Below, in pieces: positions 270 through 24,827 of a stretch of 32,000 nucleotides of DNA. Source of the stretch: Sinorhizobium meliloti (GTDB lineage Bacteria > Pseudomonadota > Alphaproteobacteria > Rhizobiales > Rhizobiaceae). The stretch's first letter is position 1. Each line of letters opens with the position of its first letter. Location of the stretch: NCBI RefSeq assembly GCF_017876815.1, contig NZ_JAGIOS010000003.1, forward strand, positions 300,001 through 332,000. The letters run 5' to 3'. A model generated the notes under the pieces. The model made no database searches, was not told the origin of the DNA, and saw only the letters and a list, made by a program, of their open reading frames with translations. Both the position numbers and the translations under genes were made by a program.

Positions 270-1910
270 TCAGGTGTTATCATGTTCGTTGCCGTGGTCG
301 GTGAGCATTTCCTTCAGCCTCGAGCCGAGTTCATTCAGATCTTTTGCGGCCTCCTCTGCCTGGCGTATCGCCGAGAGGTTCTGGCTGCTGGTCTGTTCGA
401 TGTAATGCATCGCTTCGTGAATCTGCTTCATTCCGGCGCGTTGCTGACCAGCCGAGGCGGCGATTTGAGCGACCGATCGCGCGGAATCGGCGACGATTGC
501 CTCGAGTTGCCGAATGGTTTCGCCCGCTTCGCTGACCGTCTCGAGCGCACGGCTGACGCTCTTGGATCCATCCTCGGCGCCGATCACCGCGGAGTTTGTC
601 GATTTTTGAATTTCCATGAGGATGCGGCGGACCCTGGTGGTCGCAGATTTCGACTGGTCGGCAAGCGTCCGGATCTCGCTGGCGACAACATTGAAGCCCC
701 TGCCGTGTTCGCCGGCACGCGATGCCTCGATCGCAGCATTCAATGCCAGGAGGTTCGTCTGGTCCGCGATCTCGGCAACGACCGAGACGATTTCGCCGAT
801 TTCGAGGCTGTTTTCCGCAAGCGACAGAATATCCGCAGCGATCGTCTCCGTCCGGGCACTAACGGCATTCATCACCTGCACCGTGTCGTCGAGCGCTCTG
901 CGGCCCTCATTGCTGATCTTGACGGCGTTGTCGTAGGAGGCGGCAACGTGCTGCGCGCGCTGTGCTGCCTGTTCCGACGTCTGCAATACCTCGTCGACGC
1001 TCGTGACCGTCTGGGCAACGGCCGAGGACTGCTCGCGCATGCCTTCGACCTGCTGCGTGGTGCCGGCGAGAATTTCGGCAGCTGACGATGAGAGGTGTTG
1101 CGCCGTTTCAGAAATCGTGGCGAGCAACTTCTCGAGCCGCTCCCTGCTGCCCCGCTCGTTGTCGATCATACCGGCAAGCCTTGCGGTCATCGCGTTGAAG
1201 GAGTCGCCGAGAACCGCGAGCTCGTCGCTGCCCTCCACGGATGCCTTCTGCGCCAGGTCGCCGGCGCTGACCTTTTCCGCCAGGACCGCGAGCGCGCGCG
1301 TGCGGCGGGCCAGACGGCGCACGACCCGCAGCACGTGAAGGAGCAGCAGCAGGGCGAGTGCCGAAAAACCAAACTGCAGCAATTGGGAGCGCTGGAGCCG
1401 GGTCACTCCGGCCTGTTCGATGCGGCTGATCAATCCGTCCAGACGCGCCGCAAACGCTCTGATCACGGGATCCAGCTCGTCCAGTGCGCCGCGACTGCGC
1501 GGTGCGCTGGCCATAACGCTTTCCAGACCGGGCCTGACTTCATCCAGCCATTGTTGGCGGGCTTGCTCAAGCTGCGTGAGAGCAGCAGGATCGTTCGCCG
1601 CCGCCAGACCGATCCCTTCTTCGCTATTCGCCAGGCTCGCAAGAAGCCGCTCATTGCGAGCCATCAACCGGCGCAGCTCATCGGTAGCAGCGGCCCGAGC
1701 CGGACCCTCCGCTCGTTCCAGGTGACTGGCCGTGTAGATCATCTGGTAGGCGAGCCGTTCCTTGCCAAGCGAGGACGTTGCCGCGAGATCGGCCCGCACG
1801 CGTTCCAGAGCAATGAAGCTGGACCCGACAAGCAGCGCCGATGCTGCCAGGAATAGGAGCATTGCCAACCCCAATGCGCCATAGAGGCTATTCGCTGGTC
1901 GGGGACTCAT
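270..1910 (-). CDS. Methyl-accepting chemotaxis protein: two TM segments, a ~170-aa periplasmic helical sensor, a HAMP domain and an MCP signalling domain.
   Basis: The track ORF is 270..1979. It carries the highly conserved hairpin-tip motif [43 protein letters not shown]1 is [19 protein letters not shown] and TM2 is [15 protein letters not shown], followed by a HAMP-like segment ([17 protein letters not shown]). I prefer the ATG at 1910 ([11 protein letters not shown]...), which has an AAGGA about 10 nt upstream. The 1979 start would overlap cheW by 92 nt. There is no C-terminal NWETF-type pentapeptide. Confidence 0.93.
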
Positions 1911-2556
1911 GGAACTCGGTCCTTTCCGTCTCGTCGCTGGCGGTGATCTGCTCATCCTCAAGAAAGAAGCGGCGGTCATCCAAAAGGCGGCGGCCGTCGA
2001 GAATGACCGCCCCGATTTTCGTCGCCGCCCAATGCCATGGTTTGCCTGGAGCGGGCTCCGCTGCTCGGATTTCCTCCAGCGGCAGCGTCGATATTTCTGG
2101 GGCGGCTTCGGAAAGTATCAGGAATTCGGGCCGTTCCTGCCCGCACACGATCGCCCAGTCGTCGGCGATACGGGCCTCTTGCGGGAGATCGAGCGGTCCG
2201 CGCAGATCGAACACGGGAAGCAGTTGACCGCGCAGGTCGTAAACGCCACAGGCATGCGGGGGCATTCCGGGGAGCGGGCTGACGCGTGCCCTCGAAACGA
2301 TTTCGCAAACGTAGCGGATCTCCAAGGCAAAGTGGCGATCCGCCAGGACGAAGATCACAAGACCGACGGCCTGTTCTTCGCTTTGCCCGGCGGATACGTC
2401 AACGGCCACACGGGGTGATCGTTGCTCGTATTGCGCTTCCGAATCCTGTTGTGCCGCTTCCAGAAGCGCCTCCGTCTGTTCTATCGCGGCTGCCATACGG
2501 CTTCTGACGGCGGTCCAGTCGAGCGGACGCGCGGCGGGACGGCAAGGTGTCTTCAT
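1888..2556 (-). CDS. cheW: CheW-like coupling protein with a ~65-aa N-terminal extension.
   Basis: The CheW domain is visible from [57 protein letters not shown]. Its start codon overlaps the cheR stop (ATGA at 2553-2556). Confidence 0.88.
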
Positions 2557-3983
2557 CCGGCTTCGCTCCCGAGATGTTGGCGTATCGTGGCGATCTCTCG
2601 CCGTGCACGCTGTGCCAGATGGCCGGCCGTTGCCTCGGGCATCAACTCAACGTGTTCGCGCGGCGAGCGAGATAGGCAGGACGAGAGCGCATTTTCGAGG
2701 GCGCGCAGGGCCGCCCGCGGATCGCTGTCCTTGAGGCAGACACCGAGTAAGAACTGTGCAGCCGCCAGTTTGCCGTCGAGATATGCCACCCGCCGGAGTG
2801 CTGCCTTCGCCGCATCGGTCTCGCCGCTGGCCATCCGGGAGACACCTTCAAGGAAGTGCAGTTCCGCTGATAGCGGATGCCTCTCGATCGCTCGGGCGGC
2901 AAGGCGCGCGGCCTCGCGGGGCTCACCCAGGTCGAAACGCGATCGGATTTGCCGGGCGATGGCCTCGGCCGTATCGTCGCCGGTCGTTTTTCCCGAGGCC
3001 GCGGCGCGAGCCCGGGCGAGCGGAACGCCCGCGACCGGGTTGCCGGTTTGGCGTTGGACGGGAGCGACGCACGCGGTCGAGCTTTTGCGTGTGTCCGGAG
3101 CCATGATGCGGCGGTAGACAATGCCCGCGGGCGTGATCGACGTCTCGAAGGGGGCGTATTTCCACAGGGGCGGGTCGGTCGGGGCCGTCAGCAGCCAGCC
3201 GCCATCGGAAAGGGAACCCAGAAGCTGACGGGCGATGCGGCGCACTGCGCTCGCTTCGAGATAGACGAGCACGTTGCGGCAAAGGATCAAATCGAAGTCA
3301 GACAATCGCTTTTCCGGTGCCGGAAGCGCGTCGGTGCCGAGGTTCAGATGAGCGAAGTCGACCTGCCGGCGCAATCGCTCGTTCAGTCGAAAACGCCCCT
3401 CGCACGAAGTGAAATACCGCTGCCTCAGCCTCGGGCCCGTATTCCTCAAGGCCCACTCGCCGTAGTCGCCAGCCTTGGCCGCGGCGAGAGCCCTCCTCGA
3501 AATATCGGCTGCATCGATCCGGACGCCGTCCAAGAGGCCTTCCTCTTCGCATAGAATGGCAAGCGAATACGGTTCCTCGCCCGTCGCGCAGCCGACGCTC
3601 CAGATTCGCAGAGGAGACCCCTCGGGCCGACGTCGCAGCAATTCCGGGAGAATTGTTTGCCGTATCAGCTCGAATTGCTCGGGCCCGCGGAAGAAATGCG
3701 TTTCGGCAACTGTGACCGCGGAGATCACGTCCTCGGTCAAATCCTCGTCCGATCCCAGCCGGTCGAGAAGCAAGCGACCCTCGCCAATGCCGCGCCGCAC
3801 CATGACCCGGTCTATCGCCGAAGCGACGGTTTCTTTCCGGGATGCCGAGAAGCTCAGGCCGACCCTGCCTGCAACCTGTTCAGCGAGCTCCAGCGACGGG
3901 CCGTGCCTGGTCACTGGACACCTCGTTGCCCGTTCGGGATGAAGCTCTCTGTCGAAACCGGCTGGCGCATTTTCGTTCCACAT
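2553..3983 (-). CDS. cheR: CheR-type chemoreceptor glutamate methyltransferase fused to a C-terminal TPR-like domain.
   Basis: It has a SAM-binding motif (RIWSVGCATGEEPYSLAI) and the CheR core (ILCRNVLVYL). The C-terminal ~150 aa is a helical repeat region (AARLAARAIERHPLSAELHFLEGVSRMASGETDAAKAALRRVAYLDGKLAAAQFLLGVCL) of the kind seen in WspC/FrzF-type CheRs. An internal GTG start is possible. Confidence 0.92.
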   Translation of the reverse strand: MWNENAPAGFDRELHPERATRCPVTRHGPSLELAEQVAGRVGLSFSASRKETVASAIDRVMVRRGIGEGRLLLDRLGSDEDLTEDVISAVTVAETHFFRGPEQFELIRQTILPELLRRRPEGSPLRIWSVGCATGEEPYSLAILCEEEGLLDGVRIDAADISRRALAAAKAGDYGEWALRNTGPRLRQRYFTSCEGRFRLNERLRRQVDFAHLNLGTDALPAPEKRLSDFDLILCRNVLVYLEASAVRRIARQLLGSLSDGGWLLTAPTDPPLWKYAPFETSITPAGIVYRRIMAPDTRKSSTACVAPVQRQTGNPVAGVPLARARAAASGKTTGDDTAEAIARQIRSRFDLGEPREAARLAARAIERHPLSAELHFLEGVSRMASGETDAAKAALRRVAYLDGKLAAAQFLLGVCLKDSDPRAALRALENALSSCLSRSPREHVELMPEATAGHLAQRARREIATIRQHLGSEAG

Positions 3984-4067
3984 ACATTGACTGCTGTCGT
4001 CACTACGTCCTGGCGTGCATTTGCGCTATTCGTCCGGATGACCTAGAGGGCGGCCTATCCAAGCGGA

Positions 4068-4751
4068 CTATTGTCGGTTTTCGGTCATCGGCAAAAGACG
4101 TGCTCCGGCTGCGGCCGCCTCCTGGCGGTTCCTGACCCGCAGGCTTCGGAATAGTGCTGCCATGTGGATCTTCACGGTGCCTTCGCCGAGTTTCAGCTTG
4201 CGTGCGATTTCCTTGTTCGAGAAGCCCTGTACAAGGAGCTGCAAGACTTCGCGCTGCCTCGGCGTGAGGAATTCGATCGTACGGTGGCGTTCGTTCTGGA
4301 CGCCCCCGCCAGGCGCGGGCGTCTCTGCCTCGGAAGGGGAGGCGCGGCCTGCGATGGAGGGCGGGACATAGACGGATCCGTTGAGAATGGCGCGAACCGC
4401 CTCGGCGAGATCGGTCGCGCCGAGCCCCTTGGGGACATAACCGTTTATGCCTGCCGTCAGGGCGGAGAGGATATCCGATCGACGCGACGATGCCGAAACG
4501 ACCGCGACTTTCAAATCCGGGTGGACGTCGCGCACGGCAGCAAGGCTGGCAACGCTTTGCATGCCCGGCATCGCCAGGTCGAATAGTGCCAGCGAGACGT
4601 CTTCGCGTTCGGAAAGCCTCTCGATTGCCTCGTCGAGTGACCCAGTCTCGATAATCTCGGTAAAGCGCAATTTGCTCTTCAAAATGAAGCCAAGCGCAAT
4701 CCTGAAGAATTCATCGTCATCGGCAATAAGTGCGACGCCTGAGGCATTCAT
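4068..4751 (-). CDS. NarL/FixJ-family response regulator (REC domain plus LuxR-type HTH).
   Basis: REC motifs are present: ALIADDDEFFR and a phospho-acceptor context LALFDLAMPGM. The LuxR HTH is LTPRQREVLQLLVQGFSNKEIARKLKLGEGTVKIHMAALFRSL. The track ORF extends to a GTG at 4883, but that 44-codon extension has low GC3 and no RBS. The ATG at 4751 has GGGGA 7 nt upstream and gives a typical length of 227 aa. Confidence 0.9.
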   Translation of the reverse strand: MNASGVALIADDDEFFRIALGFILKSKLRFTEIIETGSLDEAIERLSEREDVSLALFDLAMPGMQSVASLAAVRDVHPDLKVAVVSASSRRSDILSALTAGINGYVPKGLGATDLAEAVRAILNGSVYVPPSIAGRASPSEAETPAPGGGVQNERHRTIEFLTPRQREVLQLLVQGFSNKEIARKLKLGEGTVKIHMAALFRSLRVRNRQEAAAAGARLLPMTENRQ

Positions 4752-4941
4752 TACGCTATCCCCGCTCGCTGGCTCACGCCAAGGGCTTCCGAACCCGTCT
4801 AGTCGACTTGCAACTAACGATCGTCTCCGCGAATGAGTTCCCGCCATTTCCATCAATGACTGGTAGTAATTGGATTGTGCCACACACGCCGCGAGACGTG
4901 TAGGGCTAATTCCTGCCCTGTTGGCAACTGCGGCAATCGAG

Positions 4942-7900
4942 TTAGAGGGAACCGGCCGCGATCAGCTTGGAAATTTCCGCGGCGGGCAGGGGGCGAGAAA
5001 AGAGGTAGCCCTGCACCTCATTGAAGCCCTCCGAATCCACCACCGCCAGCTGATCCTCCGTTTCGACGCCCTCGACCGAGGTCGTCATGCCAAGGCTTTG
5101 CCCAAGGCCCGCGACGGCCTTGACGATCGCGAGGGACTCCTTGCCGTGCGGCAGGTCCCGGACAAAGGCCTGGTCAACCTTGATCTTGTCGAACGGAAAG
5201 CTGCGCAAGTACCCAAGTGAGGAATAACCCGTTCCGAAATCGTCCATCGCGATCTTGACGCCGAGCCTTCGCAAGTCCTGTAGCAGCTCGAGATTATGCT
5301 CACTCTCGTCCAGGAGAACCGTTTCCGTGATCTCCAGTTGCAGACGAGCGGGATCAAGCCGGGTGGCTGAAAGGGCCTTGGCGACGGCCCTCACCAGGTT
5401 GCGATGCTTGAACTGGACAGGGGAGAGGTTTACGGCAACACTCACACGTTCCGGCCAGCGCGCGGCCTGGCGGCATGCCTCGCCCAGGATCCACTCGCCA
5501 ATCGGAACGATCAAGCCGGTTTCTTCGGCAATTGGAATGAATTCGGACGGGGCGATCATTCCACGGTCGGGGTGCCGCCATCGCAACAACGCCTCGCAGC
5601 AGCTCACGCAACGCGACTCCAAGCTCACCAGCGGCTGATAGTGCAGCTCGAACTCTCCCCTCGCCAGCGCGTCCCGCATTGTGATCTTCATCTGCTGGTG
5701 TGTTTGCAACTGCGCATGCATCGCCACGTCGAAAAGCTTGTAGGTGCCGCGGCCGCTAGATTTCGCACTGTAGAGTGCGATATCAGCCGCCTTGATCAAC
5801 TCATCTGCAGAGGTTCCGTCTTCTGGCGCAAAGGCAATTCCGATGCTGGTCCCGACGGTTGCGGCGGCGCCCTCGATACTGAAGGGCTCGGAAAGGGTAT
5901 CGATCAGTCGCTGTGCGAGGCGGAAAGCTTCGTCACGTGACTCCATCAGAGGTTGTATTATAGCGAATTCGTCACCCCCAAGTCGCGCGACGGTTTCCGT
6001 GCTCCTGACTGCCTGGATCAGTCTTGTGGAAACCTGGCGCAGTAAAGCGTCGCCGGCCGGATGGCCGAGCGTGTCGTTGACGGCCTTGAAGCCGTCAAGG
6101 TCCAGGCAGAGCACTGCCATACGCGCATGGTTGCTCTCGTTCAGCGCTTCCTCGAAGCATTCGCGGAAGAACATCCGGTTCGCGAGGCCCGTGAGCATGT
6201 CGTGCCTGGCCATATGCGCCATCTGCTTTTGGGCGAGCAGGGTGTCTTCTTCCGCGCGACGCCGCTCGGTTATGTCTCGGCAGAAAATGGAAATGCCGTC
6301 TCGCGTTGGGGAGGCGTTCGCTTCGACCCAGCGGCCGAGCGACGACAAATGGTCCTCAAAAAAGGAGCGGACCCGTCGGTCCATCACTTCGCGGCAATGC
6401 TTGGCGAAGCTCCCCTCCTCCTCTTCGGGGAAGAGTTTCCAGAACACTCTTCCGAGGGCCTCGTCTCCGACCTGCAGGAGCTTCCGGGCATTCTCGTTGA
6501 GATAGCGCACGCGCCAGTCTGCGTCGAGCAGCATGACGCTATCCATGGTGCTCTCGAGAACCGAGGAAAGTTGGTCGGCAGCGGCTTCGGCGTGCCTTTG
6601 CGCACGGCTGATTTCGTCGCTTGCTCGCTTGGCATCGGTAATGTCGCGCCAGATCGACAGGATTCTGAACGGCTTTCCGTGATGGTCTGTGATCGGGGCC
6701 GAGATCACGTCCATGCATCTTTCTTCACCGCCAGCATCCCGAACGGAAATCTCGAAACGCGCTGTCTTGCCGCGTCTGACGCTTTCCCAGGCCGCCTCGA
6801 CCTTGTCGGCGTCGGAAGCTCGCCCGATTGAGTCCCATGTCTGCCCCGTCACCGGCGCGCCTTCATTCAGTCCGAAGATACGCCGCCCGGCCTCGTTCAT
6901 GAGCAGGGGCCGTCCCTCCATGTCGAGCACGCGCACACAGTCGGGGCTGCTGTCAAAGATGCTTCTGATAAACGCCTGAGCTTCCTGTTGAGCGATCTCC
7001 GCGGCTCGGCGTTCCGTGATGTCGAGAACGGATCCAACATAACCGAGGAAGGTTCCGTCGGGGGAGAAGCGCGGTTGCCCGACGTCGATGACCCATGCCC
7101 AGCTTCCGTCGGCTCGTCGCAACCGGTACTCGCTGCGCACCGGTTCCTTGCCCGCAGTCGCCCTAAAGAATGTCTCCTGGACTGCCTGGCGGTCATCGGG
7201 ATGGATGACGTCGACCCAACCGAAACCGAGCGCCTCAGCCTCTGTTTGCCCAGTCGTTTCCAACCACAAGCGATTAAAGAAGCTTGTGTCGCCTGTGGGG
7301 TCCGCTACCCAGATCATGACGGGGGCGTCGTCAGCGATGGCTCGAAAGCGGGCCTCGCTTTCGCGCAAGTCGTCGGCAGCGCGCCGCCTTTCGTCGATAT
7401 CCTCCAAAACGCCGTACCAGCGCACGATTTTTCCATCCGCGTCACGCTTTGCGGCTGCGCGAGCGCGGAACCATCGATAATCGCCGGTCTTGGTCAAGAG
7501 CCTGAATTCGCAGTCGAACGGTGCACCGCTTGCCAGGGACCGGCGCCATTCCTCTTGCAAAGCCTCCGCGTCCTGCGGATGAACCGCTTTGGCCCATCCG
7601 CTGCCGAGTGTCTCTTTTTCGCCCAGTCCGGTCAGTTCGCTCCATCGCGGGCCAACCTCCAGGACCTCTCCCGCCGTGTCTGCGGTCCAGGGAACTTGCG
7701 GGTGAAGGTCGACCAGAGAGCGATAATGCTCTTCGCTCGCTCGGAGGGTCTCTTCGGTCCTGCGCAGGTTGGTGATATCCACGATCGTTACGACCACGAA
7801 CTTCTCTTGTGTCGAACCGGCGGGAATGCTCACGCACCGTTTTTTCGTCAGGAGCGTGCGCTGTGTCCCATCGGGCGTCGTGATTTGCTCTTCGAGCTCG

Positions 7901-8157
7901 TGGCCTTCGCTTGTCGAAAGTACGATCCTGTCGAGCGAGACGATCCTGTCTGCCTGCTCCCCCGGTAATATGTCGTGGTCGGTCCGTCCAATGAGCTGGT
8001 TCCGGTCTTTCCCCAGAAGGTCGCATGCCGCGTCGTTGATGAAGACGAACCGTGACGCATCGTCCTTGATAATCACCGGTTCGGCGATGCCATCCAAAAG
8101 CCGCTGGAAGAGATCATGGGATCTATGGGAGGGCGGTTCGGGCGTCGGTGCGTTCAT
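4942..8157 (-). CDS. Cytoplasmic multi-PAS (about five PAS/PAC modules) GGDEF-EAL protein, a c-di-GMP cyclase/phosphodiesterase.
   Basis: There are repeated PAS/PAC blocks, for example RWFRARAAAKRDADGKIVRWYGVLEDIDERRRA and WAWVIDVGQPRFSPDGTFLGYVGSVLDITERR. The GGDEF motif is intact (RLGGDEFAII) and no RxxD I-site sits upstream of it. The EAL signature residues are intact (CCEALLRW, LQLEITE, DDFGTGYSSL, EGVETEDQ, QGYLFSRP). No TM segments are evident. Confidence 0.95.
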   Translation of the reverse strand: MNAPTPEPPSHRSHDLFQRLLDGIAEPVIIKDDASRFVFINDAACDLLGKDRNQLIGRTDHDILPGEQADRIVSLDRIVLSTSEGHELEEQITTPDGTQRTLLTKKRCVSIPAGSTQEKFVVVTIVDITNLRRTEETLRASEEHYRSLVDLHPQVPWTADTAGEVLEVGPRWSELTGLGEKETLGSGWAKAVHPQDAEALQEEWRRSLASGAPFDCEFRLLTKTGDYRWFRARAAAKRDADGKIVRWYGVLEDIDERRRAADDLRESEARFRAIADDAPVMIWVADPTGDTSFFNRLWLETTGQTEAEALGFGWVDVIHPDDRQAVQETFFRATAGKEPVRSEYRLRRADGSWAWVIDVGQPRFSPDGTFLGYVGSVLDITERRAAEIAQQEAQAFIRSIFDSSPDCVRVLDMEGRPLLMNEAGRRIFGLNEGAPVTGQTWDSIGRASDADKVEAAWESVRRGKTARFEISVRDAGGEERCMDVISAPITDHHGKPFRILSIWRDITDAKRASDEISRAQRHAEAAADQLSSVLESTMDSVMLLDADWRVRYLNENARKLLQVGDEALGRVFWKLFPEEEEGSFAKHCREVMDRRVRSFFEDHLSSLGRWVEANASPTRDGISIFCRDITERRRAEEDTLLAQKQMAHMARHDMLTGLANRMFFRECFEEALNESNHARMAVLCLDLDGFKAVNDTLGHPAGDALLRQVSTRLIQAVRSTETVARLGGDEFAIIQPLMESRDEAFRLAQRLIDTLSEPFSIEGAAATVGTSIGIAFAPEDGTSADELIKAADIALYSAKSSGRGTYKLFDVAMHAQLQTHQQMKITMRDALARGEFELHYQPLVSLESRCVSCCEALLRWRHPDRGMIAPSEFIPIAEETGLIVPIGEWILGEACRQAARWPERVSVAVNLSPVQFKHRNLVRAVAKALSATRLDPARLQLEITETVLLDESEHNLELLQDLRRLGVKIAMDDFGTGYSSLGYLRSFPFDKIKVDQAFVRDLPHGKESLAIVKAVAGLGQSLGMTTSVEGVETEDQLAVVDSEGFNEVQGYLFSRPLPAAEISKLIAAGSL

Positions 8158-9199: not shown

Positions 9200-9264
9200 A
9201 GTGCGGCGCTATCTCGACTCCGGCCGTCTTGCGCCGAGAGTTCGTGGGCGAAAGGTCGGCGTCG

Positions 9265-9765
9265 ATGCATCAGGGGTTCTTTCTTCTGTTCGCTACGGTG
9301 TCCGTGGTCACAGCCCTGACGCTGGTCCTGGCGCGCAATCCGGTTCACAGCGCATTGGCGCTGATGGCGTGCTTCCTGCAGATTTCCGCAATCTTCGTTA
9401 TGCTCGGCGCGCCGCTGCTCGCGGTCATCCAGATCTTCGTCTATGTCGGCGCGATCATGGTCCTGTTCCTGTTCGTGATCATGATGGTCGACGTGCGCGA
9501 AGCGGTGCTGCAGCGTTTCATGCCCGGCGGCAACTTGCCGGCGCTCGCCCTTCTCGTCCTGCTCGGTGCTGAGATGGTCGTGCTGGTGCTCTGGAGTGAT
9601 CGCTTCATCGAATCGCCGCCAGTCGCCGAACGCGGAGGCGATGCGATCAGAGATCTCAGCAAGACGCTCTTCTCGGACTATCTCCTGCCGTTCGAAGTCG
9701 CCTCCGTCATCCTGCTGGCGGCTCTCGTCGGCGCCATCGTGCTGGCGCGGAAGGAGCCTGGCTGA
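9265..9765 (+). CDS. nuoJ: NADH-quinone oxidoreductase subunit J.
   Basis: The sequence [74 protein letters not shown] is typical of NuoJ. I chose the ATG at 9265 rather than the track's TTG at 9229. The stop overlaps the nuoK start (TGATG). Confidence 0.9.
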
Positions 9766-10067
9766 TGGTCCCGCTCTGGTGGTCGATCCTGCTCGGAGTG
9801 GCCCTGTTTGTGATAGGAGCGGGGGGCGTCCTTCTAAGGCGCAATATCCTGATCGTGCTGATGTCGCTGGAGCTTCTGCTCAATTCGGTCAACATCAATT
9901 TCATCGCCTTCGGGCAGTACTACGACGACTTCCGCGGACAGATCTTTGCGATCTTCGTCATCGCGATCACCGCGGCGGAGGTTGCCGTGGCCCTCGGCAT
10001 ATTGGTCGCGCTGGTGAGGAACAAGTCCACCCTCAAGGTAGACGACGTCACCATCATGAAAGGATAG
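9765..10067 (+). CDS. nuoK: NADH-quinone oxidoreductase subunit K.
   Basis: It is 100 aa with three TM segments and the NuoK signature [19 protein letters not shown]. Confidence 0.95.
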
Positions 10068-10071
10068 CGGC

Positions 10072-11535
10072 TTGGACCCGGTGATATCGACCCGGCCGCT
10101 GCTCGCCGTCGCCGTCGCCGGACTGGCGGCCCTCGCCATTCTCTTTCTCAACAAGCGCGAAAAACTCCGCGACGCGGTATCGCCGATCGCCGCGGTCGCC
10201 ATGTTTGCGATCGTCGTCTCCATGGCGCCGACGGTGCTGGCCGGCGGCACCGTCGAACTGCGGTTGTTCGAGGTCCTGCCAGGGATCGACGTCGCTTTGC
10301 GGGCCGATGCGCTCGGCATGGTATTCGCCACTGTCTCTTCGCTTCTGTGGATCGTGGCCGCGGTCTACTCCATCGGTTATATGCGGCACTTGCACGAGCA
10401 CGCGCAGACCCGCTTTTTCGCCTGCTTCGCCACCAGCCTCGCGGCCGCAGTGGGCGGCGCCTTCGCCGCAAATCTGTTCACGCTGGTTATCTTCTACGAG
10501 GTGCTGAGCCTCGTCACCTATCCGCTCGTCTACCACCACGAGGACGAAGAAGGATGGCGGGGCAGCCGCAAGTATCTCGTCTATCTGATGGGCGCTTCGA
10601 AAAGCGTGCTTCTCGCTGCTTTGGCGCTGACCTATCACATCGCCGGGTCGCTCGACTTCGTGAGGGGCGGGTTGCTGACCGGCGCCAATGCCTCGGCGAC
10701 GCTGCTCACTGTCGTCTATTTCTGCTATCTGTTCGGCTTCGCCAAGGCGGCGGTGATGCCGATGCATGCCTGGCTGCCCGCCGCAATGGTGGCGCCGACG
10801 CCTGTCAGCGCGCTCTTGCATGCCGTGGCGGTCGTCAAAATGGGCGTCTTCTGCGTGCTGCGGGTGATCTTTCATGTTTTTGGCGTCAGCACGGTCGGGG
10901 AACTGGGCCTTGGGGTCGCCACGGCCTATTTGGTCTCATTCACCATCCTGATGGCATCGGTCTACGCGCTGACGCGCGACGACCTGAAGGCGAGGCTTGC
11001 CTATTCGACCGTCAGCCAGCTCTCCTACATCGTGTTGGGCGCGGTACTCCTATCGCCGCTGGCCATGGTCGGCGGGATCATCCACATCGCCGCGCATGCA
11101 TTCTCCAAGATCACGCTCTTTTTCTGCGCGGGGTCGATCTATTGCGCGTCCGGAAAACGCAACATCAGCGACATGGCGGGCATCGGCCGGAGGCTTCCCT
11201 GGACGATGGGGGCATTCTTCGTCGCGTCGCTGAGCATGATCGGCATCCCGCCGACGGCAGGTTTCGTCAGCAAGTGGTATCTGGCGGAGGGCTCGGTAGA
11301 GGCCGGACAGATGGCTTTCCTGGCCGTGCTGCTCGCAAGTTCGGTCCTCAATGCCGCCTATTTTCTGCCGGTCAGCTACACCGCCTTTTTCGAGGCGGAG
11401 ACCAAGGAGAGCCGGGCGCCGGTCCGCGAAATCCCGCTTGTTGCGATCCCGCTGGTCGCGACCGCGATCCTATCAGTGCTGATGGGCATCTTCCCCTACT
11501 ATTTCCTCACCCTCGCGGACGGAGTGATCCGATGA
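10072..11535 (+). CDS. Extra antiporter-like subunit of the NuoL/MrpA-MrpD family (Proton_antipo_M type), with no lateral helix.
   Basis: It is 487 aa and polytopic. The TM5 Glu context is LVIFYEVLSLVTYPLV. The TM7-8 signature FGFAKAAVMPMHAWLPAAMVAPTPVSALLHAVAVVKMGVF is of NuoL/MrpA type. The protein ends right after the pump core, so it lacks the C-terminal amphipathic helix. The TTG start at 10072 sits 7 nt after AAAGGA, and a GTG at 10081 is an alternative. Confidence 0.85.
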   Translation: MDPVISTRPLLAVAVAGLAALAILFLNKREKLRDAVSPIAAVAMFAIVVSMAPTVLAGGTVELRLFEVLPGIDVALRADALGMVFATVSSLLWIVAAVYSIGYMRHLHEHAQTRFFACFATSLAAAVGGAFAANLFTLVIFYEVLSLVTYPLVYHHEDEEGWRGSRKYLVYLMGASKSVLLAALALTYHIAGSLDFVRGGLLTGANASATLLTVVYFCYLFGFAKAAVMPMHAWLPAAMVAPTPVSALLHAVAVVKMGVFCVLRVIFHVFGVSTVGELGLGVATAYLVSFTILMASVYALTRDDLKARLAYSTVSQLSYIVLGAVLLSPLAMVGGIIHIAAHAFSKITLFFCAGSIYCASGKRNISDMAGIGRRLPWTMGAFFVASLSMIGIPPTAGFVSKWYLAEGSVEAGQMAFLAVLLASSVLNAAYFLPVSYTAFFEAETKESRAPVREIPLVAIPLVATAILSVLMGIFPYYFLTLADGVIR

Positions 11536-11786
11536 TCAAGCCTGTCGTCGATTTCTTTGGTGACGCGCAATATGCGAGGTTGCGCCGGCGGCTGTTCTAT
11601 CTGGTGCTCGTCCTGATCGTCGCCGCCGACTTCCTGGTTCCCCGCGACCACGCCGAATACCTGTGGGAGCGGCTGCCGGGCTGGCCGGCGGCGTACGGCT
11701 TCGGCTCCTGCGTGCTGCTCATCTTCGTTTCCAAGTTTCTCGGTCATCGCGCCGGGCTGATGCGGCGCGAGGACTACTATGATTGA
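11532..11786 (+). CDS. Small (84 aa) predicted two-TM membrane protein of unknown function, embedded in the nuo membrane-arm operon.
   Basis: The sequence is MIKPVVDFFGDAQYARLRRRLFYLVLVLIVAADFLVPRDHAEYLWERLPGWPAAYGFGSCVLLIFVSKFLGHRAGLMRREDYYD. Its ATG overlaps the upstream stop (ATGA at 11532-11535) and its stop overlaps the next gene's start by 8 nt. Third codon positions are strongly G/C-biased. In the track it appears only as the tail of the out-of-frame ORF 10347..11786. Confidence 0.55.
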   Translation: MIKPVVDFFGDAQYARLRRRLFYLVLVLIVAADFLVPRDHAEYLWERLPGWPAAYGFGSCVLLIFVSKFLGHRAGLMRREDYYD

Positions 11787-13539
11787 TTTCGTCCACCCGG
11801 CTCTCATCTTCATTCTAGGCGCTCTGCCGATCCCGTTCTTAACGGGACCGGTGCGTAAAGCCTATCTCGTGCTGATCCCGGTACTGGCGATCGTCGCCGT
11901 CACGGCGATAGAGCCCGGCAGTCATGGCGAGACGCAGTTCCTCGGCCAGGACATTCTGGTTGCGAAGGCCGACAAGCTCAGCATCGTCTTCGCGACCGTC
12001 TTCACCATCATGGCGCTGATCGGCACGGTCTATGCATTGCACCTTTCCGGCGCCGGCCAGCATGTGGCCGCCTTCGTCTATGTCGGCAGCGCGCTCGGGG
12101 TGGTGTTCGCAGGCGACTATCTGACCCTCTACCTGTTTTGGGAGGGCATGGCATTCGCCTCGGCTTATCTGGTCTTCGCTCAAGGAGGCCGACAGGCGAT
12201 CCGCGCCGCTTTTCGGTATCTTATGGTCCACGTCACCGGCGGCGTCGTCCTGCTCGGGGGAATTCTGCTCCATGGGGCAGCCGCAGGCTCGCTGCTCTTC
12301 GGTCCGGTCGAGGGCCCTTTGGGCGCGGGTGCCTACCTCATTCTTGCCGGTTTCCTGCTCAACGCGGCGGTGCCGCCGCTCAATGCCTGGCTGACCGATG
12401 CCTACCCGGAGGCGACCGTCACCGGGGCGGTGTTCATGAGCGCCTTCACGACCAAGACCGCCGTCTACGTGCTGGCGCGGGCGTTTCCGGGTATCGAACT
12501 GCTGGTCTGGCTCGGCACGGTGATGGCGCTCTATGGCGTCATTTATGCGGTGCTGGAAAACGACTGCCGCCGCCTTCTTGCCTATCATATCGTCAGCCAG
12601 GTGGGCTACATGGTCGCGGGCATCGGCATCGGCACCGAGCTGGCGGTGAACGGAGCCACCAGTCACGCCTTCGCGCACATCCTTTACAAGGGGCTCCTGT
12701 TCATGGGCGCCGGGGCGGTGATCTACGTCACAGGCCGGCGCAAGCTCACGGAGCTTGGCGGGCTCTACAAGGCAATGCCGCTGACGGTGGCGCTCTATAT
12801 GATCGGCGCCTTTGCGATCTCGGCATTTCCGTTCTTCTCGGGTTTTGTCAGCAAATCGATGGTGGTGGCCGCTGCAGGGCAGGATCACCGCGCGCTGGTG
12901 ATGCTGGCGCTGACGATGGCGTCATCCGGGACGTTCCTGCACACCGGGCTCAAACTCCCCTATTACATGTTCTTCGGTACCGACCGGGGGCTGCAGGCAC
13001 GGGAGCCGCCCGGCAACATGCTGGCCGCGATGGGCATGGCGGCGGCGCTTTGCATTGCCATCGGCGTATTCCCCGGACCGCTCTACGCGCTTCTGCCCTA
13101 TCCTGTCGATTTCGAGCCCTATACCGGCGTCCACGTGACCGAGAGCCTCGGGATCCTGATGTTCACGGCTCTGGGCTTTGTGATCTTCCTCCGGGCGCTC
13201 GATCCCGAAAACACGATCAGTCTCGACATCGACTGGTTCTATCGCAAGGGCGCCCGCGCCTTCATGTGGTTCGCAGAAAGACCGTTGGCGCGCTATGAGA
13301 AGGCGGTCAGCGACGTGTCGGAGACCACGGTTCTGCCCTTCCTGCACGGCTCGGCGCGCACGGGGATGCGGCTCGATCTCAATGGCGTGGATGGAGTCGT
13401 CAATGGCGTCGCCCGATCGATCCTCGAAGGCGGCGGCGTATTGCGGCGCTTGCAGACCGGCGTCATCAGCCATTACGTGCTGGCGATGATCGCCGGTCTG
13501 ATCGCGGCCATCCTCGTCTTCGCGGTCGTCTGGAGGTAG
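11779..13539 (+). CDS. nuoL: NuoL-like antiporter subunit carrying the C-terminal lateral (HL) helix and a terminal TM anchor.
   Basis: It is 586 aa. The pump core shows LYLFWEGMAFASAYLV and NAWLTDAYPEATVTGAVFMSAFTTKTAVY. The C-terminus reads DIDWFYRKGARAF...LNGVDGVVNGVARSILEGGGVLRRLQTGVISHYVLAMIAGLIAAILVFAVVWR. The DG-VNG...LQTG...Y motif followed by a final TM is characteristic of NuoL/MrpA lateral-helix regions. Confidence 0.85.
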   Translation: MIDFVHPALIFILGALPIPFLTGPVRKAYLVLIPVLAIVAVTAIEPGSHGETQFLGQDILVAKADKLSIVFATVFTIMALIGTVYALHLSGAGQHVAAFVYVGSALGVVFAGDYLTLYLFWEGMAFASAYLVFAQGGRQAIRAAFRYLMVHVTGGVVLLGGILLHGAAAGSLLFGPVEGPLGAGAYLILAGFLLNAAVPPLNAWLTDAYPEATVTGAVFMSAFTTKTAVYVLARAFPGIELLVWLGTVMALYGVIYAVLENDCRRLLAYHIVSQVGYMVAGIGIGTELAVNGATSHAFAHILYKGLLFMGAGAVIYVTGRRKLTELGGLYKAMPLTVALYMIGAFAISAFPFFSGFVSKSMVVAAAGQDHRALVMLALTMASSGTFLHTGLKLPYYMFFGTDRGLQAREPPGNMLAAMGMAAALCIAIGVFPGPLYALLPYPVDFEPYTGVHVTESLGILMFTALGFVIFLRALDPENTISLDIDWFYRKGARAFMWFAERPLARYEKAVSDVSETTVLPFLHGSARTGMRLDLNGVDGVVNGVARSILEGGGVLRRLQTGVISHYVLAMIAGLIAAILVFAVVWR

Positions 13540-13545
13540 GGCGCG

Positions 13546-15021
13546 ATGTCGATCCCGCTGCTGAGCCTCATCGTCTTCGTGCCCGTCGCCGGGGCGGCCG
13601 TTCTGATGTTCATGCGCAGCGACGATGCGGTGCGGTGGACTGCGCTCGGTTTCGGGATTGTCGATCTCGCTCTCTGCGTGGTGATGCTGGCAGGCTTCGA
13701 CACGACGACCCACGAAATGCAGTTCACCGAGAGCCGTCCCTGGGTGCCCGCGCTCGGGATCACCTATGCGCTCGGCGTCGACGGCATCAGCGCGCTCTTC
13801 CTGTTCCTGACGGCGCTGTTGAGCTTGATCTCCGTGCTCGCTTCCTGGGTGGCGATCGACCGCAAGGTGAAGGAGTTCATGGTCAGCCTGCTGGTCATGC
13901 AGGCGCTGATGCTCGGTGTCTTCTGCGCGCTCGACCTGTTCCTGTTCTACGTCTTCTGGGAAGCGATGCTGATTCCGATGTATCTGATCATCGGCGTCTG
14001 GGGCGGCGAAGGCCGGGTCTATGCTGCGTTCAAGTTCTTCCTCTACACGCTGGCCGGCAGCATCCTCTTCCTGATCGGCGTCATCGTGCTCTATTTCCAG
14101 GGGGGCGAGACCTTCGACATACTCGCCCTGACGGGGCAGGATCTGCCCTTCGGCGTCCAGGCCTGGCTGTTCTTCGCCTTCCTGGTGGCCTTCGCTGTCA
14201 AGGTGCCGATGGTGCCGGTGCACACGTGGCTGCCGGACGCCCATGTGCAGGCGCCGACTGCGGGCAGCATCATTCTCGCGGGCGTGCTCCTGAAGATGGG
14301 TGCTTACGGATTCCTGCGCTTCTCGCTGCCGATGCTGCCGGAAGCATCGCTCTATTATTCGACGCTCATGCTCGCGCTTTCGGCTCTTGCGATCGTTTAT
14401 GGCGGCCTGCTGGCTCTGGCCCAGGACGACCTAAAAAAGCTGGTGGCCTATTCCAGCATCAGCCATATGGGATTCGTGACGCTCGGGATTTTCGCGCTGA
14501 ATCTGCGCGGGCTCGAGGGCAGCATCCTGCAGATGTTCAATCACGGGATAACGACGGGCGCATTGTTCCTGTTCGTGGGCCTGATCTACGAGCGCACGCA
14601 TACCCGCAGCATCGCGAATTACGGCGGGCTGATGAAGGCGGCGCCCGTCTATACCGCCTTTCTTGCGCTCTTCACCCTGTCTTCGATGGCGCTGCCGGGG
14701 ACGAACGCTTTCGTGGGCGAACTGCTGGTGCTGTCAGGCGGGTTTGCGGCAAACCTCGCCGCGGGCGCCGCGGCCGTAGTGGGTGCGTTGCTGAGTGCCG
14801 CCTACCTGCTCGGCATGTACGGGAAAGTGGCGCTTGGTCCGCCGAGTGTGAGTGCGAAGTATGAGATACATGACGTGAACGGCCGCGAGATCGCTGCCAT
14901 CCTGCCGCTCGCCATCTTCGTGCTCTGGGTTGGGCTCTATCCGCGCCCGTTCCTCGGGATCATCGATGCGTCGGTTCGAAATCTGCTGGTGCAGGTACAC
15001 GGTGAAGGGAGTGGTCAATGA
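13546..15021 (+). CDS. nuoM: NADH-quinone oxidoreductase subunit M.
   Basis: It carries VFWEAMLIPMYLIIGVWGG and the NuoM-type signature VHTWLPDAHVQAPTAGSIILAGVLLKMGAYG. GGAGG lies 6-10 nt upstream of the start. Confidence 0.93.
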   Translation: MSIPLLSLIVFVPVAGAAVLMFMRSDDAVRWTALGFGIVDLALCVVMLAGFDTTTHEMQFTESRPWVPALGITYALGVDGISALFLFLTALLSLISVLASWVAIDRKVKEFMVSLLVMQALMLGVFCALDLFLFYVFWEAMLIPMYLIIGVWGGEGRVYAAFKFFLYTLAGSILFLIGVIVLYFQGGETFDILALTGQDLPFGVQAWLFFAFLVAFAVKVPMVPVHTWLPDAHVQAPTAGSIILAGVLLKMGAYGFLRFSLPMLPEASLYYSTLMLALSALAIVYGGLLALAQDDLKKLVAYSSISHMGFVTLGIFALNLRGLEGSILQMFNHGITTGALFLFVGLIYERTHTRSIANYGGLMKAAPVYTAFLALFTLSSMALPGTNAFVGELLVLSGGFAANLAAGAAAVVGALLSAAYLLGMYGKVALGPPSVSAKYEIHDVNGREIAAILPLAIFVLWVGLYPRPFLGIIDASVRNLLVQVHGEGSGQ

Positions 15022-16457
15022 CTGCTGCCGCGCTTCTCCAATGGGCCCTGGCGAGCGTCCCCGAGATCATCGTGGTCACCGGTGCCTGCGTCCTGCTGAT
15101 TGTCGGAGAGCTTGTGCGCAAGGGACGCGACGATCTGCTCCTGTGGGCTTCAGTAGCGATCGTGCTCCTCGCCGCGGTAGCCACGCTCATGCTGGCAGGC
15201 GAGATGCAGCCAGCCTATGCGGGCATGTTCATTTCCGACCGCTTCGCCGTCTTCTTCAAGTTGGTGTTTTATCTGGCGACCATCCTGACCTTCTTCCTGT
15301 CGCGGAAATACGCCGAGATAGAGGGGATCGGCAGGAGCGAATATTATGTCCTGCTGCTCTTTGCCCTTGTGGGAATGATGATCATGGCCTCGGCGATCGA
15401 CCTCCTGTCGATCTATGTGGGTCTCGAGTTGATGGTGCTCTGCACCTATGTGCTGACAGGCTTCCTGCGCAAAGAGCGGCGGTCGAACGAGGCGGCGTTG
15501 AAATATGTGATCCTCGGCGCGGTCTCGACGGCGATTTTCCTTTATGGAGTCTCGCTCATCTACGGGCTCACCGGTACGACCCAGCTGAACCGGATGGCTG
15601 AGGCGGTGAGCGGCGGTCCGCTCGATCCCGCCCTGCTGCTGGCGGTCGTTTTCATCGTTGCGGGGCTCGTCTTCAAGATCGGCGCCGTGCCGTTCCATAT
15701 GTGGGTGCCGGATGTCTATGAAGGCGCGCCGACGACGATCACCGCCTTCATGTCGGTCGCGCCCAAGGCGGCCGGATTCGCGGTGATTCTCCGGGTGTTC
15801 CTCAATCCGCTTGTCGAAGCCTCGAACGCCTGGATCATCGTCGCGGCCATTGCGGTGGCAACGATGGCGCTCGGCAGTTTCGTCGCGCTTGTGCAGGATA
15901 ATTTCAAGCGCCTGCTCGCCTATTCCAGCATCGCCCATGCGGGTTTCGCTATTTTCGGCGTGGTGGCCGGCGGCCAGGACGGGATCGCCAGCGTAATGCT
16001 CTATCTGCTCATCTACACTTTCATGAATCTCGGCATTTTCGGCGCGGTGATCATGATGCGGAACGGCGACTTTTCCGGCGAAGTCATCGAAGACTACGCG
16101 GGTTTCGCCAAGTTCCATCCCGGACTCGCGCTTCTGATGCTCCTTTATCTCTTCTCGCTCGCTGGCATTCCGCCGACGGCCGGGTTCTTCGCCAAGTTCT
16201 ATGTGCTGGTCGCGCTGGTCGAGCGCGGTTTCGTCGCGCTGGCGGTGATCGCAGTCCTGCTCAGCGTCGTCTCCGCCTATTTCTATATCCGCATCGTCAT
16301 GGTGATCTACATGCGTGAGCCGGAAAGGGCGTTCGAACCTGCGTTGACGCCGCTCGTCAGCGCCACGCTCGCCTTCACCGCCGCCGGCACCATCGGCATC
16401 GGCCTGTTTCCGGCGTGGTTCCTGAGGCTTGCTCAACAGTCGGCTTTCGGCGGGTAA
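15018..16457 (+). CDS. nuoN: NADH-quinone oxidoreductase subunit N.
   Basis: It has the NuoN-type signature FKIGAVPFHMWVPDVYEGAPTTITAFMSVAPKAAGF. Its start overlaps the nuoM stop (ATGA). Confidence 0.92.
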   Translation: MTAAALLQWALASVPEIIVVTGACVLLIVGELVRKGRDDLLLWASVAIVLLAAVATLMLAGEMQPAYAGMFISDRFAVFFKLVFYLATILTFFLSRKYAEIEGIGRSEYYVLLLFALVGMMIMASAIDLLSIYVGLELMVLCTYVLTGFLRKERRSNEAALKYVILGAVSTAIFLYGVSLIYGLTGTTQLNRMAEAVSGGPLDPALLLAVVFIVAGLVFKIGAVPFHMWVPDVYEGAPTTITAFMSVAPKAAGFAVILRVFLNPLVEASNAWIIVAAIAVATMALGSFVALVQDNFKRLLAYSSIAHAGFAIFGVVAGGQDGIASVMLYLLIYTFMNLGIFGAVIMMRNGDFSGEVIEDYAGFAKFHPGLALLMLLYLFSLAGIPPTAGFFAKFYVLVALVERGFVALAVIAVLLSVVSAYFYIRIVMVIYMREPERAFEPALTPLVSATLAFTAAGTIGIGLFPAWFLRLAQQSAFGG

Positions 16458-23776: not shown

Positions 23777-24217
23777 TCAGCGATAGTTTGCTCCGCAAAT
23801 GTAATCGTGCATGTCCCGCTCCGCTTGCAATGCCTCTTCGAGCCGGTGTTTGACCACGTCGCCGATGCTGACCACGCCGACGGCATCGTTGCCGTCCATG
23901 ACTAATACATGGCGCGTGCGCCGCTCGGTCATGATCGACATCACGAATGGGAGGAAATCCTCCGTCGAGCAGGTCGCGACAGTGCGGTTCATGATTTCTC
24001 CCACCCGCATCAGGGGTGCTTCGGTGCCGTACTCGGCCACGGCATGGCAGCAGTCCCGCTCCGAGAGTGTGCCCAGGCATTCCCCTGGCGAACGGCCGAC
24101 GACGACGAAGCCGATATTCTTGTCGCGAAACAGCCGCAATACTTCCACCATCGTGTGGTCCGGCGTGACCGAGAAGATTTCGGGAGACTTGCTCCCCAGG
24201 ATTTGGCAGATGTGCAT
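23777..24217 (-). CDS. Stand-alone CBS-pair domain protein (146 aa), downstream of nuoI in the same operon.
   Basis: Two CBS motifs are present: LGTLSERDCCHAVAEYG and VGVVSIGDVVKHRLEEALQAERDMHDYI. The ATG at 24217 is preceded by GGAGG with a 5-nt spacer. The track ORF extends to 24325, inside nuoI. Confidence 0.88.
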   Translation of the reverse strand: MHICQILGSKSPEIFSVTPDHTMVEVLRLFRDKNIGFVVVGRSPGECLGTLSERDCCHAVAEYGTEAPLMRVGEIMNRTVATCSTEDFLPFVMSIMTERRTRHVLVMDGNDAVGVVSIGDVVKHRLEEALQAERDMHDYICGANYR

Positions 24218-24260: not shown

Positions 24261-24827
24261 TCACTTTCGTCGAATATTCCGCCACCAATTGTACCCGCGC
24301 GGCTCGCTGGCCTCGACCAGAACATCCCGTTCGGTGTTCAGGCGCGCAGCCACGACACCGCCGCCGGTCATCGCCTTGCCCGGCTTGGCGAGCAGATCGT
24401 CACGGCCGATCACCAAGTCGCGCGAGGAGAAACTCGAAAATTCATATTGTTGGCCAAGAGCGATCGCGTCCGCCGGGCAGGCGTCCTCGCAGAGCCCACA
24501 GAAGAGACAGCGGGCCGTGTCGATTTCGAATTTGGCAGGGCGCCGATTGCCCTTCTCGTCCTCGTAGGGGACCACTTCGATGCAGTCGCAGGGACAGATC
24601 CGCGCGCAAAGTTCGCAAGCGACGCATTTGATCTCGCCCTCGTCGTCACGCTTGAGGAAATGATGCCCGCGATAGCGCGAATAGGGCAGCCACTTCTCCT
24701 TGTCCGGATATTGCATGGTGACGGGTCTGGAAAACATGTAGCCGAAGGTCAAAGCCAAACCATTCGCCAGATCGGCGAAGAAGGCCCAGCCGATCCATCT
24801 TCCAGCTTTGTCCAGTGCGCGCGACAT
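24261..24827 (-). CDS. nuoI: NADH-quinone oxidoreductase subunit I (2x 4Fe-4S ferredoxin).
   Basis: It carries CVACELCARICPCDCIEV and CLFCGLCEDACPADAI, plus YRGHHFLKRDDEGEIKC. The ATG at 24827 (MSRALDKAGRW...) has GAGG 5 nt upstream and gives a canonical N-terminal length. An alternative ATG at 24893 lies 3 nt after the nuoH stop. Confidence 0.93.
   Translation of the reverse strand: MSRALDKAGRWIGWAFFADLANGLALTFGYMFSRPVTMQYPDKEKWLPYSRYRGHHFLKRDDEGEIKCVACELCARICPCDCIEVVPYEDEKGNRRPAKFEIDTARCLFCGLCEDACPADAIALGQQYEFSSFSSRDLVIGRDDLLAKPGKAMTGGGVVAARLNTERDVLVEASEPRGYNWWRNIRRK

Follow-up and report, generated by a model that had tools for sequence, protein, structure and literature searches.

Versions of complex I with four or five pumps have been noted since extra pumps alter the ions moved per electron pair (PMC7419157, PMC9040806). 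In the 'green complex I' of rhizobia, encoded on a Sinorhizobium megaplasmid, two MrpD-like genes replace nuoL, the genes follow the order nuoJ-K-D1-D2-M-N and then nuoA-G, and nuoH-I lie on the other strand. Its operon was reported to be symbiosis-induced (PMC7415380). Two MrpD-like subunits, reported to be closest to the rhizobial ones, also belong to the TO_2 terminal oxidase of 'Ca. Manganitrophaceae' and to Complex_I_3 (Yu et al. 2022, PMC9040806), and the same study described the rhizobial MrpD2 as lacking a 26-residue extension that is found where one more NuoM must be spanned. In this study, we analysed 32,000 nucleotides of Sinorhizobium meliloti DNA (contig NZ_JAGIOS010000003.1, positions 300,001 to 332,000; in the following, the window) and focused on a small open reading frame (ORF) of 84 codons plus stop, located at 11532..11786 on the forward strand between two pump genes of a complex I operon.

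Positions 10000 to 13600 of the window were 100% identical to plasmid NC_017327.1 of S. meliloti SM11, and the identity to pSymA of strain 1021 was 99.6%. The gene order is nuoJ, nuoK, a gene of 487 amino acids (D1), the small ORF, a gene of 586 amino acids (D2), nuoM and nuoN, followed by nuoA to nuoG. Based on gene content and order on a rhizobial replicon, this operon is the published green complex I, while the standard nuo operon lies outside the window. Where the accessible descriptions of green complex I differ from the locus is that they name the two MrpD-like subunits only and no small gene between them; likewise, such a gene between the MrpD-like genes of TO_2 and Complex_I_3 is unmentioned in PMC9040806. 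Overall, the small gene went unmentioned in the accessible papers that deal with green complex I, the diversity of Mrp systems, TO_2 or the distribution of complex I; as the original publications describing green complex I and complex I with four pumps are not among them, an earlier mention is possible.

A first-pass annotation, made from the sequence alone, had proposed that the small ORF encodes an undescribed accessory subunit of complex I. Our analysis supports an undescribed accessory protein tied to the extra pump as a fair reading, but not its restriction to complex I: the small protein is not a complex I invention but part of a portable cassette derived from Mrp-type antiporters, since the same triad of pump gene, small gene and pump gene was also found in stand-alone Mrp-type clusters and beside bd-like oxidases. 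We infer, with a probability of roughly 60%, that the small protein is a stoichiometric accessory subunit tying the two pumps of this Mrp-derived cassette together.

The small ORF is a real gene under purifying selection

Both ends of the small ORF overlap with its neighbours, as had been noted before and as inspection of the sequence confirmed. Its start codon (ATG, 11532-11534) shares three bases with the TGA stop codon (11533-11535) of D1, resulting in the ATGA at 11532..11535 (+). Its own stop codon is the TGA at 11784-11786, and D2 starts with the ATG at 11779, so that the two genes share the 8-nt overlap ATGATTGA (11779..11786, +), in which the Y-D-stop codons of the small ORF hold the D2 start M-I-D (TAT GAT TGA read as ATG ATT GA. 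in the frame of D2). Shine-Dalgarno-like motifs were located 7 nt upstream of the ATG of the small ORF (GGAG) and 5 nt upstream of that of D2 (AGGA). The deduced protein of 9.8 kDa has the amino acid sequence MIKPVVDFFGDAQYARLRRRLFYLVLVLIVAADFLVPRDHAEYLWERLPGWPAAYGFGSCVLLIFVSKFLGHRAGLMRREDYYD.

In regard to codon usage, the GC content at codon positions 1, 2 and 3 of the small ORF is 0.67, 0.39 and 0.81, respectively. The neighbouring nuo genes display the same signature, with a third-position GC content (GC3) of 0.80-0.83, and no other frame of the stretch does. The earlier statement that nearly all third positions are G or C is exaggerated, the actual GC3 of 81% being ordinary for the operon. 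The ORF had also been taken as unannotated, which is not the case: the NCBI annotation pipeline PGAP lists it at identical coordinates as a 'hypothetical protein' (QND35365.1, WP_223730526.1), and in strain 2011 it bears the locus tag SM2011_a6338. The small ORF is therefore uncharacterised, yet already annotated.

Searches for relatives revealed a large family. A word-indexed search resulted in 275 relatives, the best 120 of which were rhizobial proteins of 83-84 amino acids with 79-98% identity. Using phmmer against 1.84 billion cluster representatives, we obtained 315 clusters (50% identity level, E <= 0.001), mostly of 70-120 amino acids, and profile searches with two alignments yielded 1229 and 2947 proteins (E <= 1e-5). 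Among species-representative genomes, the signature M[KR][RK]EDYYD led to at least 538 confirmed relatives in 600 candidate stretches, while 510 of the 600 candidates from a metagenome scan, run with a family consensus in first place, were relatives. Two locus sets were derived from these, namely a rhizobial set consisting of the best 80 of the at least 538 relatives, with one genome per species (Rhizobiaceae, Phyllobacteriaceae, Mesorhizobium, Microvirga), and a diverse set of 80 metagenome loci kept out of the 510 relatives. A further alignment (A1) comprised 84 diverse family members. Altogether, the family extends over Alpha-, Gamma- and Deltaproteobacteria, Nitrospinota and one archaeon, and its members are named 'hypothetical protein', 'transmembrane protein' or '2TM domain-containing protein' in their sources, or carry evident mis-labels.

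The small ORF was intact in all 80 rhizobial loci, where the upstream overlap read ATGA in 76 and GTGA in four, and the D2 ATG lay eight bases before the end of the small ORF in all 76 loci scored for the overlap. The ratio of non-synonymous to synonymous substitution rates (dN/dS; Nei-Gojobori method, 2626 pairs from the rhizobial loci) amounted to 0.17, compared to 0.11 for D1 and 0.13 for D2, and was thus far below the value near 1 that the first-pass annotation had named as refuting its proposal. The same reading frame remains open over 479 codons (10347-11786, +), back through most of D1; this is an artefact of GC-rich DNA, so that the length of the ORF alone is no evidence here. Such a long open frame, together with the missing translation signal in one ribosome profiling (Ribo-seq) dataset, would suit a frame that is open by chance or a mere spacer coupling translation of D2 to that of D1. 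The dN/dS ratio rules this out, and the codon positions show coding-type GC contents. Amino acid motifs are, moreover, shared by members with as little as about 35-40% identity, in different phyla and also in the archaeon, and a spacer would not retain an invariant tyrosine and a conserved helical face. We regard a non-functional frame as having next to no likelihood; the small ORF is a real gene under purifying selection.

Neither Pfam nor NCBIfam contained a family matching the small ORF at E <= 1, and a Pfam scan of the 84 members of A1 revealed no meaningful match. A search of the PDB with the family profile gave nothing below E = 5, and Foldseek found no relevant match in the PDB for the predicted model. 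The gene thus belongs to an unnamed family of proteins of about 70-120 amino acids with two transmembrane (TM) helices, and this family is without model, structure or described role.

Predicted topology and conserved positions

Hydropathy analysis revealed a lysine- and arginine-rich stretch before the first of two hydrophobic segments (residues ~17-36 and ~51-72) and an acidic C-terminus ending in REDYYD. Using alignment A1, AlphaFold2 predicted, with high confidence, a helical hairpin with a mean pLDDT (predicted local distance difference test) of 93.6. Its main helices comprise residues 12-34 and 51-72, with about 15 residues in the connecting loop, and short helices were predicted at residues 3-10 and 80-83. 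The basic N-terminal stretch, the two-helix topology and the acidic tail recognised in the first-pass annotation are thus borne out. TM helix 1 (residues ~17-36; 11580..11639, +; AlphaFold2 helix 12-34) is preceded by the basic stretch R16-R20 and carries the conserved D33 near its end. It is followed by a predicted periplasmic loop (residues 37-50; 11640..11681, +) with the conserved positions H40, F/Y43, W45, E/D46, P49 and G50 and a low content of lysine and arginine (1.2 per sequence in A1). TM helix 2 (residues 51-72; 11682..11747, +) coincides with the AlphaFold2 helix and, based on column conservation, is the most conserved part of the protein (F51, A53, Y/F55, G56, F57, C60, I63, I64, S/A67, K68, L70 and G71). 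The cytoplasmic tail (11748..11783, +) ends in the signature L-M-[KR]-x-E-D-Y-Y-D, which emerged from A1. Across the family, lysine and arginine cluster before TM1 (positions 16-20) and after TM2 (K68, position 78/79), and the loop is poor in these residues and richer in aspartate and glutamate. According to the positive-inside rule, this would place both termini in the cytoplasm and the loop in the periplasm.

The consensus of A1 toward the C-terminus reads …DF…H..F.W..IPGF.A.YGF..CVLII..SK.LG…L.K.EDYYD. Tyrosine 83 is invariant (84/84), position 33 is aspartate or glutamate in 75 of the 84 members, and H40 and K68 are retained in 64/83 and 75/84, respectively. Besides the face of TM2, conservation is concentrated at D33, H40, W45, P49-G50-F51, K68 and E80-D81-Y82-Y83-D84. 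The window protein ends with LMRREDYYD and contains PGW, YGF and SK, and thus shows the complete signature of the cassette, [LI]-M-[KR]-x-E-D-Y-Y-[DE] together with the core P-G-[FW]...Y-G-F...S-K. TM2 is far more conserved than TM1, and its positions 53, 56, 57, 60, 63, 64, 67, 68, 70 and 71 share a single face of the helix, as would be expected if it packs tightly onto a partner.

Since D33, H40 and K68 are among the best-conserved positions and lie at the helix ends, they could also act on the lateral charge relay between D1 and D2, by extending or gating it, in which case the small protein would be needed for coupling and not for stability only. That it accompanies the pump pair whatever redox module is attached would be in line with such a part in the ion pathway. 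The three residues are, however, found at the predicted membrane boundaries, while the relay residues of antiporter-like subunits are located mid-membrane (PMC7419157), and we consider this role improbable.

The D1-small-D2 triad occurs in three kinds of complex

The upstream gene D1 (10072..11535, +) encodes an antiporter-like protein that matched NF006236 (PRK08375.1-1) with 854.7 bits (cut-off 663, NCBIfam). Its alignment to the NuoL model ends at position 468 of 615, so that it is without the lateral helix. The downstream gene D2 (11779..13539, +) matched NF009310 (PRK12668.1) with 793.3 bits (cut-off 564, NCBIfam), and its alignment to the NuoL model extends to position 612 of 615, thus including the NuoL-type lateral helix and the last TM helix. 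Its last two hydrophobic segments comprise residues ~453-474 and 567-585, which places the lateral-helix region (residues ~475-566) and the last TM helix (567-585) at 13201..13533 (+). Both proteins align end to end with their own family models. This assignment was made for five contexts in all, the window and four others; in the four non-rhizobial contexts, the best NCBIfam match was again NF006236 for the upstream gene (2/4 above cut-off) and NF009310 for the downstream gene (4/4 above cut-off).

It had been suggested to check whether homologues of the small protein always sit between an antiporter-like gene without lateral helix and a NuoL-like gene, and the diverse metagenome loci agree with this almost without exception. 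An antiporter-like gene ended within a few bases of the small-gene start in 72 of 73 testable loci and began at the small-gene stop in all 71 testable ones. Of the 72 upstream junctions, 47 were 4-nt overlaps and 21 had a spacing of -1 to +1 nt, and of the 71 downstream junctions, 49 were overlaps of 8 nt and 13 were overlaps of 11 nt. Based on the surrounding genes, 41 of the 80 loci were complex I operons, 15 were Mrp-type clusters and one was a bd-like oxidase cluster, the remaining 23 being too short to tell.

In the complex I context, which was found in Deltaproteobacteria assemblies and other metagenome contigs, the standard order is nuoD/E/F/G/H/I/J/K, D1, small gene, D2, nuoM and nuoN. 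Mrp-type clusters were detected in Shewanella gelidii, in Oleiphilus messinensis and in an archaeal genome assembly that has the mtr operon nearby. They show the order MnhE, MrpF, MrpG, then MbhD/MbhE/MnhB, whether as fused or as separate genes, then MrpC and a first antiporter-like gene, followed by D1, the small gene and D2. The Nitrospinota locus consists of Rieske/cytochrome b, cytochromes c, a cytochrome bd-like oxidase of 789 amino acids, D1, small gene and D2, and is thus of the same kind of layout as TO_2. Gene order and flanking families are invariant across these three kinds of complex; the conserved unit is therefore the D1-small-D2 triad and not complex I. Since the cassette occurs in Mrp-type antiporter clusters, it probably originated there.

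Major differences were detected in the C-terminus of D2. In complex I loci, the extension is NuoL-like, as it carries the motif VDG..NG…LQTG and about 92 residues separate the last two hydrophobic segments, while in Mrp loci its sequence is different and comprises about 79 to 103 residues. The D2 of the bd-like oxidase locus has no extension and ends, with 501 amino acids, just past TM15. As the small gene is kept with all three types of C-terminus, its partner surface is unlikely to be the lateral helix or TM16.

Apart from the 80 loci, a plasmid of Haloarcula marina harbors an Mrp cluster of the same architecture with a D2 relative of 43% identity. Its middle pump of 550 amino acids (6178-7830 in locus L180) was considered as a fusion with the small protein and rejected, as its additional residues, about 60 in number, form an acidic loop of low complexity inserted before the last TM helix.

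Further observations were made in these loci. Deltaproteobacteria-type complex I loci contain an ORF of 245 amino acids without Pfam match between D2 and nuoM (L009/L010, 11094-11831) and a gene for a cyclic nucleotide (cNMP)-binding protein between nuoG and nuoH (L009/L010, 3852-4322; L182, 5201-5671), both of which are unexpected within a nuo operon. In metagenome contig Ga0208765_1000085 (L132), a complex I operon with D1-small-D2 is directly followed by an Mrp-type cluster (MnhE, MrpF, MrpG, MbhD/E-MnhB, MrpC, and a pump gene truncated where the locus ends).

Proposed role of the small protein

Taken together, the middle gene of the cassette would encode a small inner-membrane protein with two TM helices, delivered in step with D1 and D2 by the tight translational coupling. 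Its conserved TM2 face and its invariant acidic, tyrosine-rich C-terminus may pack against the D1-D2 pair, so that the protein would hold together or stabilise two pumps left unclamped to each other by D2's lateral helix. The lateral region of D2 has about the length of that of NuoL, and a helix of this length would span two pump subunits. If it reaches NuoM and NuoN, as that of NuoL does, D1 would lie beyond D2 and be clamped by no lateral helix, and a two-helix protein at the D1-D2 junction could provide the tie that is lacking. The version found with the bd-like oxidase points to such a role as well, as it keeps the small gene although it has no lateral helix. The small protein is thus presumed to be present in the finished complex, to contact both D1 and D2, and to act structurally.

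Several points weigh against this reading. In a Ribo-seq study of S. meliloti 2011 grown free-living in minimal medium (PMC10117765), SM2011_a6338 revealed footprints of 0 and 7.8 reads per kilobase per million (RPKM) at mRNA levels of 66 and 181 RPKM and a translation efficiency (TE) of 0.02. It was therefore not called translated, being below the threshold of that study (TE >= 0.5 and RPKM >= 10). The gene nuoK2 of the same operon, with a TE of 0.2, is also below the threshold, and the operon is poorly expressed under free-living growth, so that this condition seems uninformative rather than negative. We found no structure, co-purification or proteomic detection of the small protein, and no natural fusion to a pump gene among the matches listed or in the 80 diverse loci. 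Because the D2 start overlaps the final two codons, Y83 and D84 could be under additional, dual-coding constraint, which might explain some of their conservation. However, the overlap does not reach E80-Y82, and members with further residues behind the YY pair still keep that pair.

In the 17-kb Haloarcula locus, the family profile found no small gene in any frame, indicating that three pumps in a row can work without the small protein. Provided that this cluster is functional, it also speaks against the part in the ion pathway discussed above, and it fits a helper more than a core part. The small protein might accordingly be an assembly factor that helps to insert or pair D1 and D2 and then leaves, being absent from the mature complex. 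A dedicated chaperone would show the same synteny and translational coupling. The gene lies among the structural genes and overlaps both of its neighbours, though, which suggests that the small protein is made in the same dose as D1 and D2; this would be unusual for a catalytic helper, and the all-round conservation of TM2 and the free C-terminal motif look like a permanent docking surface. We rate an assembly factor as unlikely, though still a serious contender, and favour a permanent tie between the two pumps.

A more far-reaching version of the tie is conceivable, which we consider doubtful. The small protein would then be an essential functional component of a two-pump unit that is self-contained and can be transferred, in which D33, H40, K68 and the docking tail complete the coupling between D1 and D2. 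Such a cassette could be plugged onto unrelated energy sources, be it a NADH dehydrogenase, a bd-like oxidase or the base of a cation antiporter, and would need no lateral helix as a link between its pumps.

As the rhizobial D2 has a lateral helix of NuoL length only, the question of how an added pump is held and coupled applies directly here, and a conserved protein travelling with D1 and D2 into three kinds of complex is an obvious candidate for the link. Thus, the small gene should be included in work on green complex I, on Shewanella-type Mrp antiporters and on the bd-like oxidase complexes of Nitrospinota and Manganitrophaceae, where omitting an 84-codon 'hypothetical' gene from a construct could explain failed assemblies. 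The C-terminus …EDYYD between two pump genes is also a simple sequence marker for such cassettes in genomes. Since the operon is reported to be symbiosis-induced (PMC7415380), a role in the energy conservation of bacteroids is possible. The operon and the hypothetical annotation were known. The finding of the family is not surprising in principle, but it is broad, covering three types of complex and two domains of life, and bears on the attachment of additional pumps.

Other genes of the window

The part of the operon that includes the cassette begins with nuoJ and nuoK (9229..10067, +), and the two canonical pump genes nuoM and nuoN (13546..16457, +) are located 3' of D2. The genes nuoH (24897-25883) and nuoI (24261-24827) are encoded on the reverse strand, convergent with nuoG (21129-23690), so that complex I is encoded by at least two transcription units that run towards each other. 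Next after nuoI, a gene for a CBS-domain protein was identified (23777-24217, -). Upstream of the nuo genes, a signalling block (270-8157, -) comprises genes for a methyl-accepting chemotaxis protein, a CheW-like protein (1888-2556), CheR and a response regulator, as well as for a protein of 1071 amino acids (4942-8157) with about five PAS domains, GGDEF and EAL, whose gene is missing from the PLSDB gene table.

Comparison with known subunits and systems

In order to compare the small protein with known subunits, the family profile was aligned with hhalign to alignments built from the fetched loci (MrpC, MrpE, MrpF, MrpG, MnhB, MbhD, MbhE, NuoA, NuoJ, NuoK, and the N- and C-terminal parts of D2), resulting in probabilities of 0.1-5.4% overall. 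That no canonical core subunit of complex I matches, as claimed in the first-pass annotation, was corroborated by Pfam, NCBIfam and hhalign. In particular, NuoA, NuoJ and NuoK were rejected, since neither PF00507, PF00499 and PF00420 nor the equivalogs matched, hhalign probabilities were at most 2%, and the operon has its own nuoA, nuoJ and nuoK. A split-off N-terminus of D2 or a piece of its lateral helix and TM16 was rejected as well (hhalign <=0.5%), D1 and D2 being complete with respect to their family models. The Pfam '2TM' domain did not match the window protein at E <= 1 and was missing from the list of families for the 84 members, so that the name '2TM domain-containing protein' is a source label only.

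The small subunits of Mrp, MBH and MBS complexes (MrpB, C, E, F and G, MbhD, MbhE, MbhI) are alike in being short membrane proteins that are encoded beside antiporter-like subunits and needed to build the complex. Membership in MrpB/MnhB, MrpC, MrpE, MrpF, MrpG, MbhD or MbhE was rejected nonetheless, based on hhalign probabilities of 0.1-5.4% and the lack of a Pfam match in the 84 members. In contrast to these subunits, with which it shares no sequence or profile similarity, the small gene is an extra: the Mrp-type clusters that hold it also hold the full set of known Mrp small subunits, and the solved Mrp and MBS structures are from cluster types without it. In MbhI-type proteins, a long amphipathic lateral helix connects two TM helices. 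This type was rejected too, as PF10125 (NADHdeh_related) was missing from the families that the Pfam scan listed for the 84 members and the loop of about 15 residues contains no long helix.

The closest analogy for the proposed role is offered by NdhP and NdhQ of the cyanobacterial NDH-1L complex, which are small TM subunits specific to the NdhD1/NdhF1 pair and stabilise that version of the complex. They differ in having one TM helix each, in their unrelated sequences and in their occurrence in cyanobacteria and plastids only, and no Pfam match links them to the small-protein family. KdpF is a small stabilising subunit of another membrane complex. CydX, in turn, is a small subunit of the cytochrome bd oxidase (PMC10117765). 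Both resemble the small protein in being very short membrane proteins, encoded within the operon of the complex they bind and long missed in annotation, but each of them crosses the membrane with one TM helix only, is part of a different complex and is unrelated to it in sequence. By kind, then, the small protein appears to resemble those small membrane subunits that stabilise particular versions of a complex, while being a member of none of their families.

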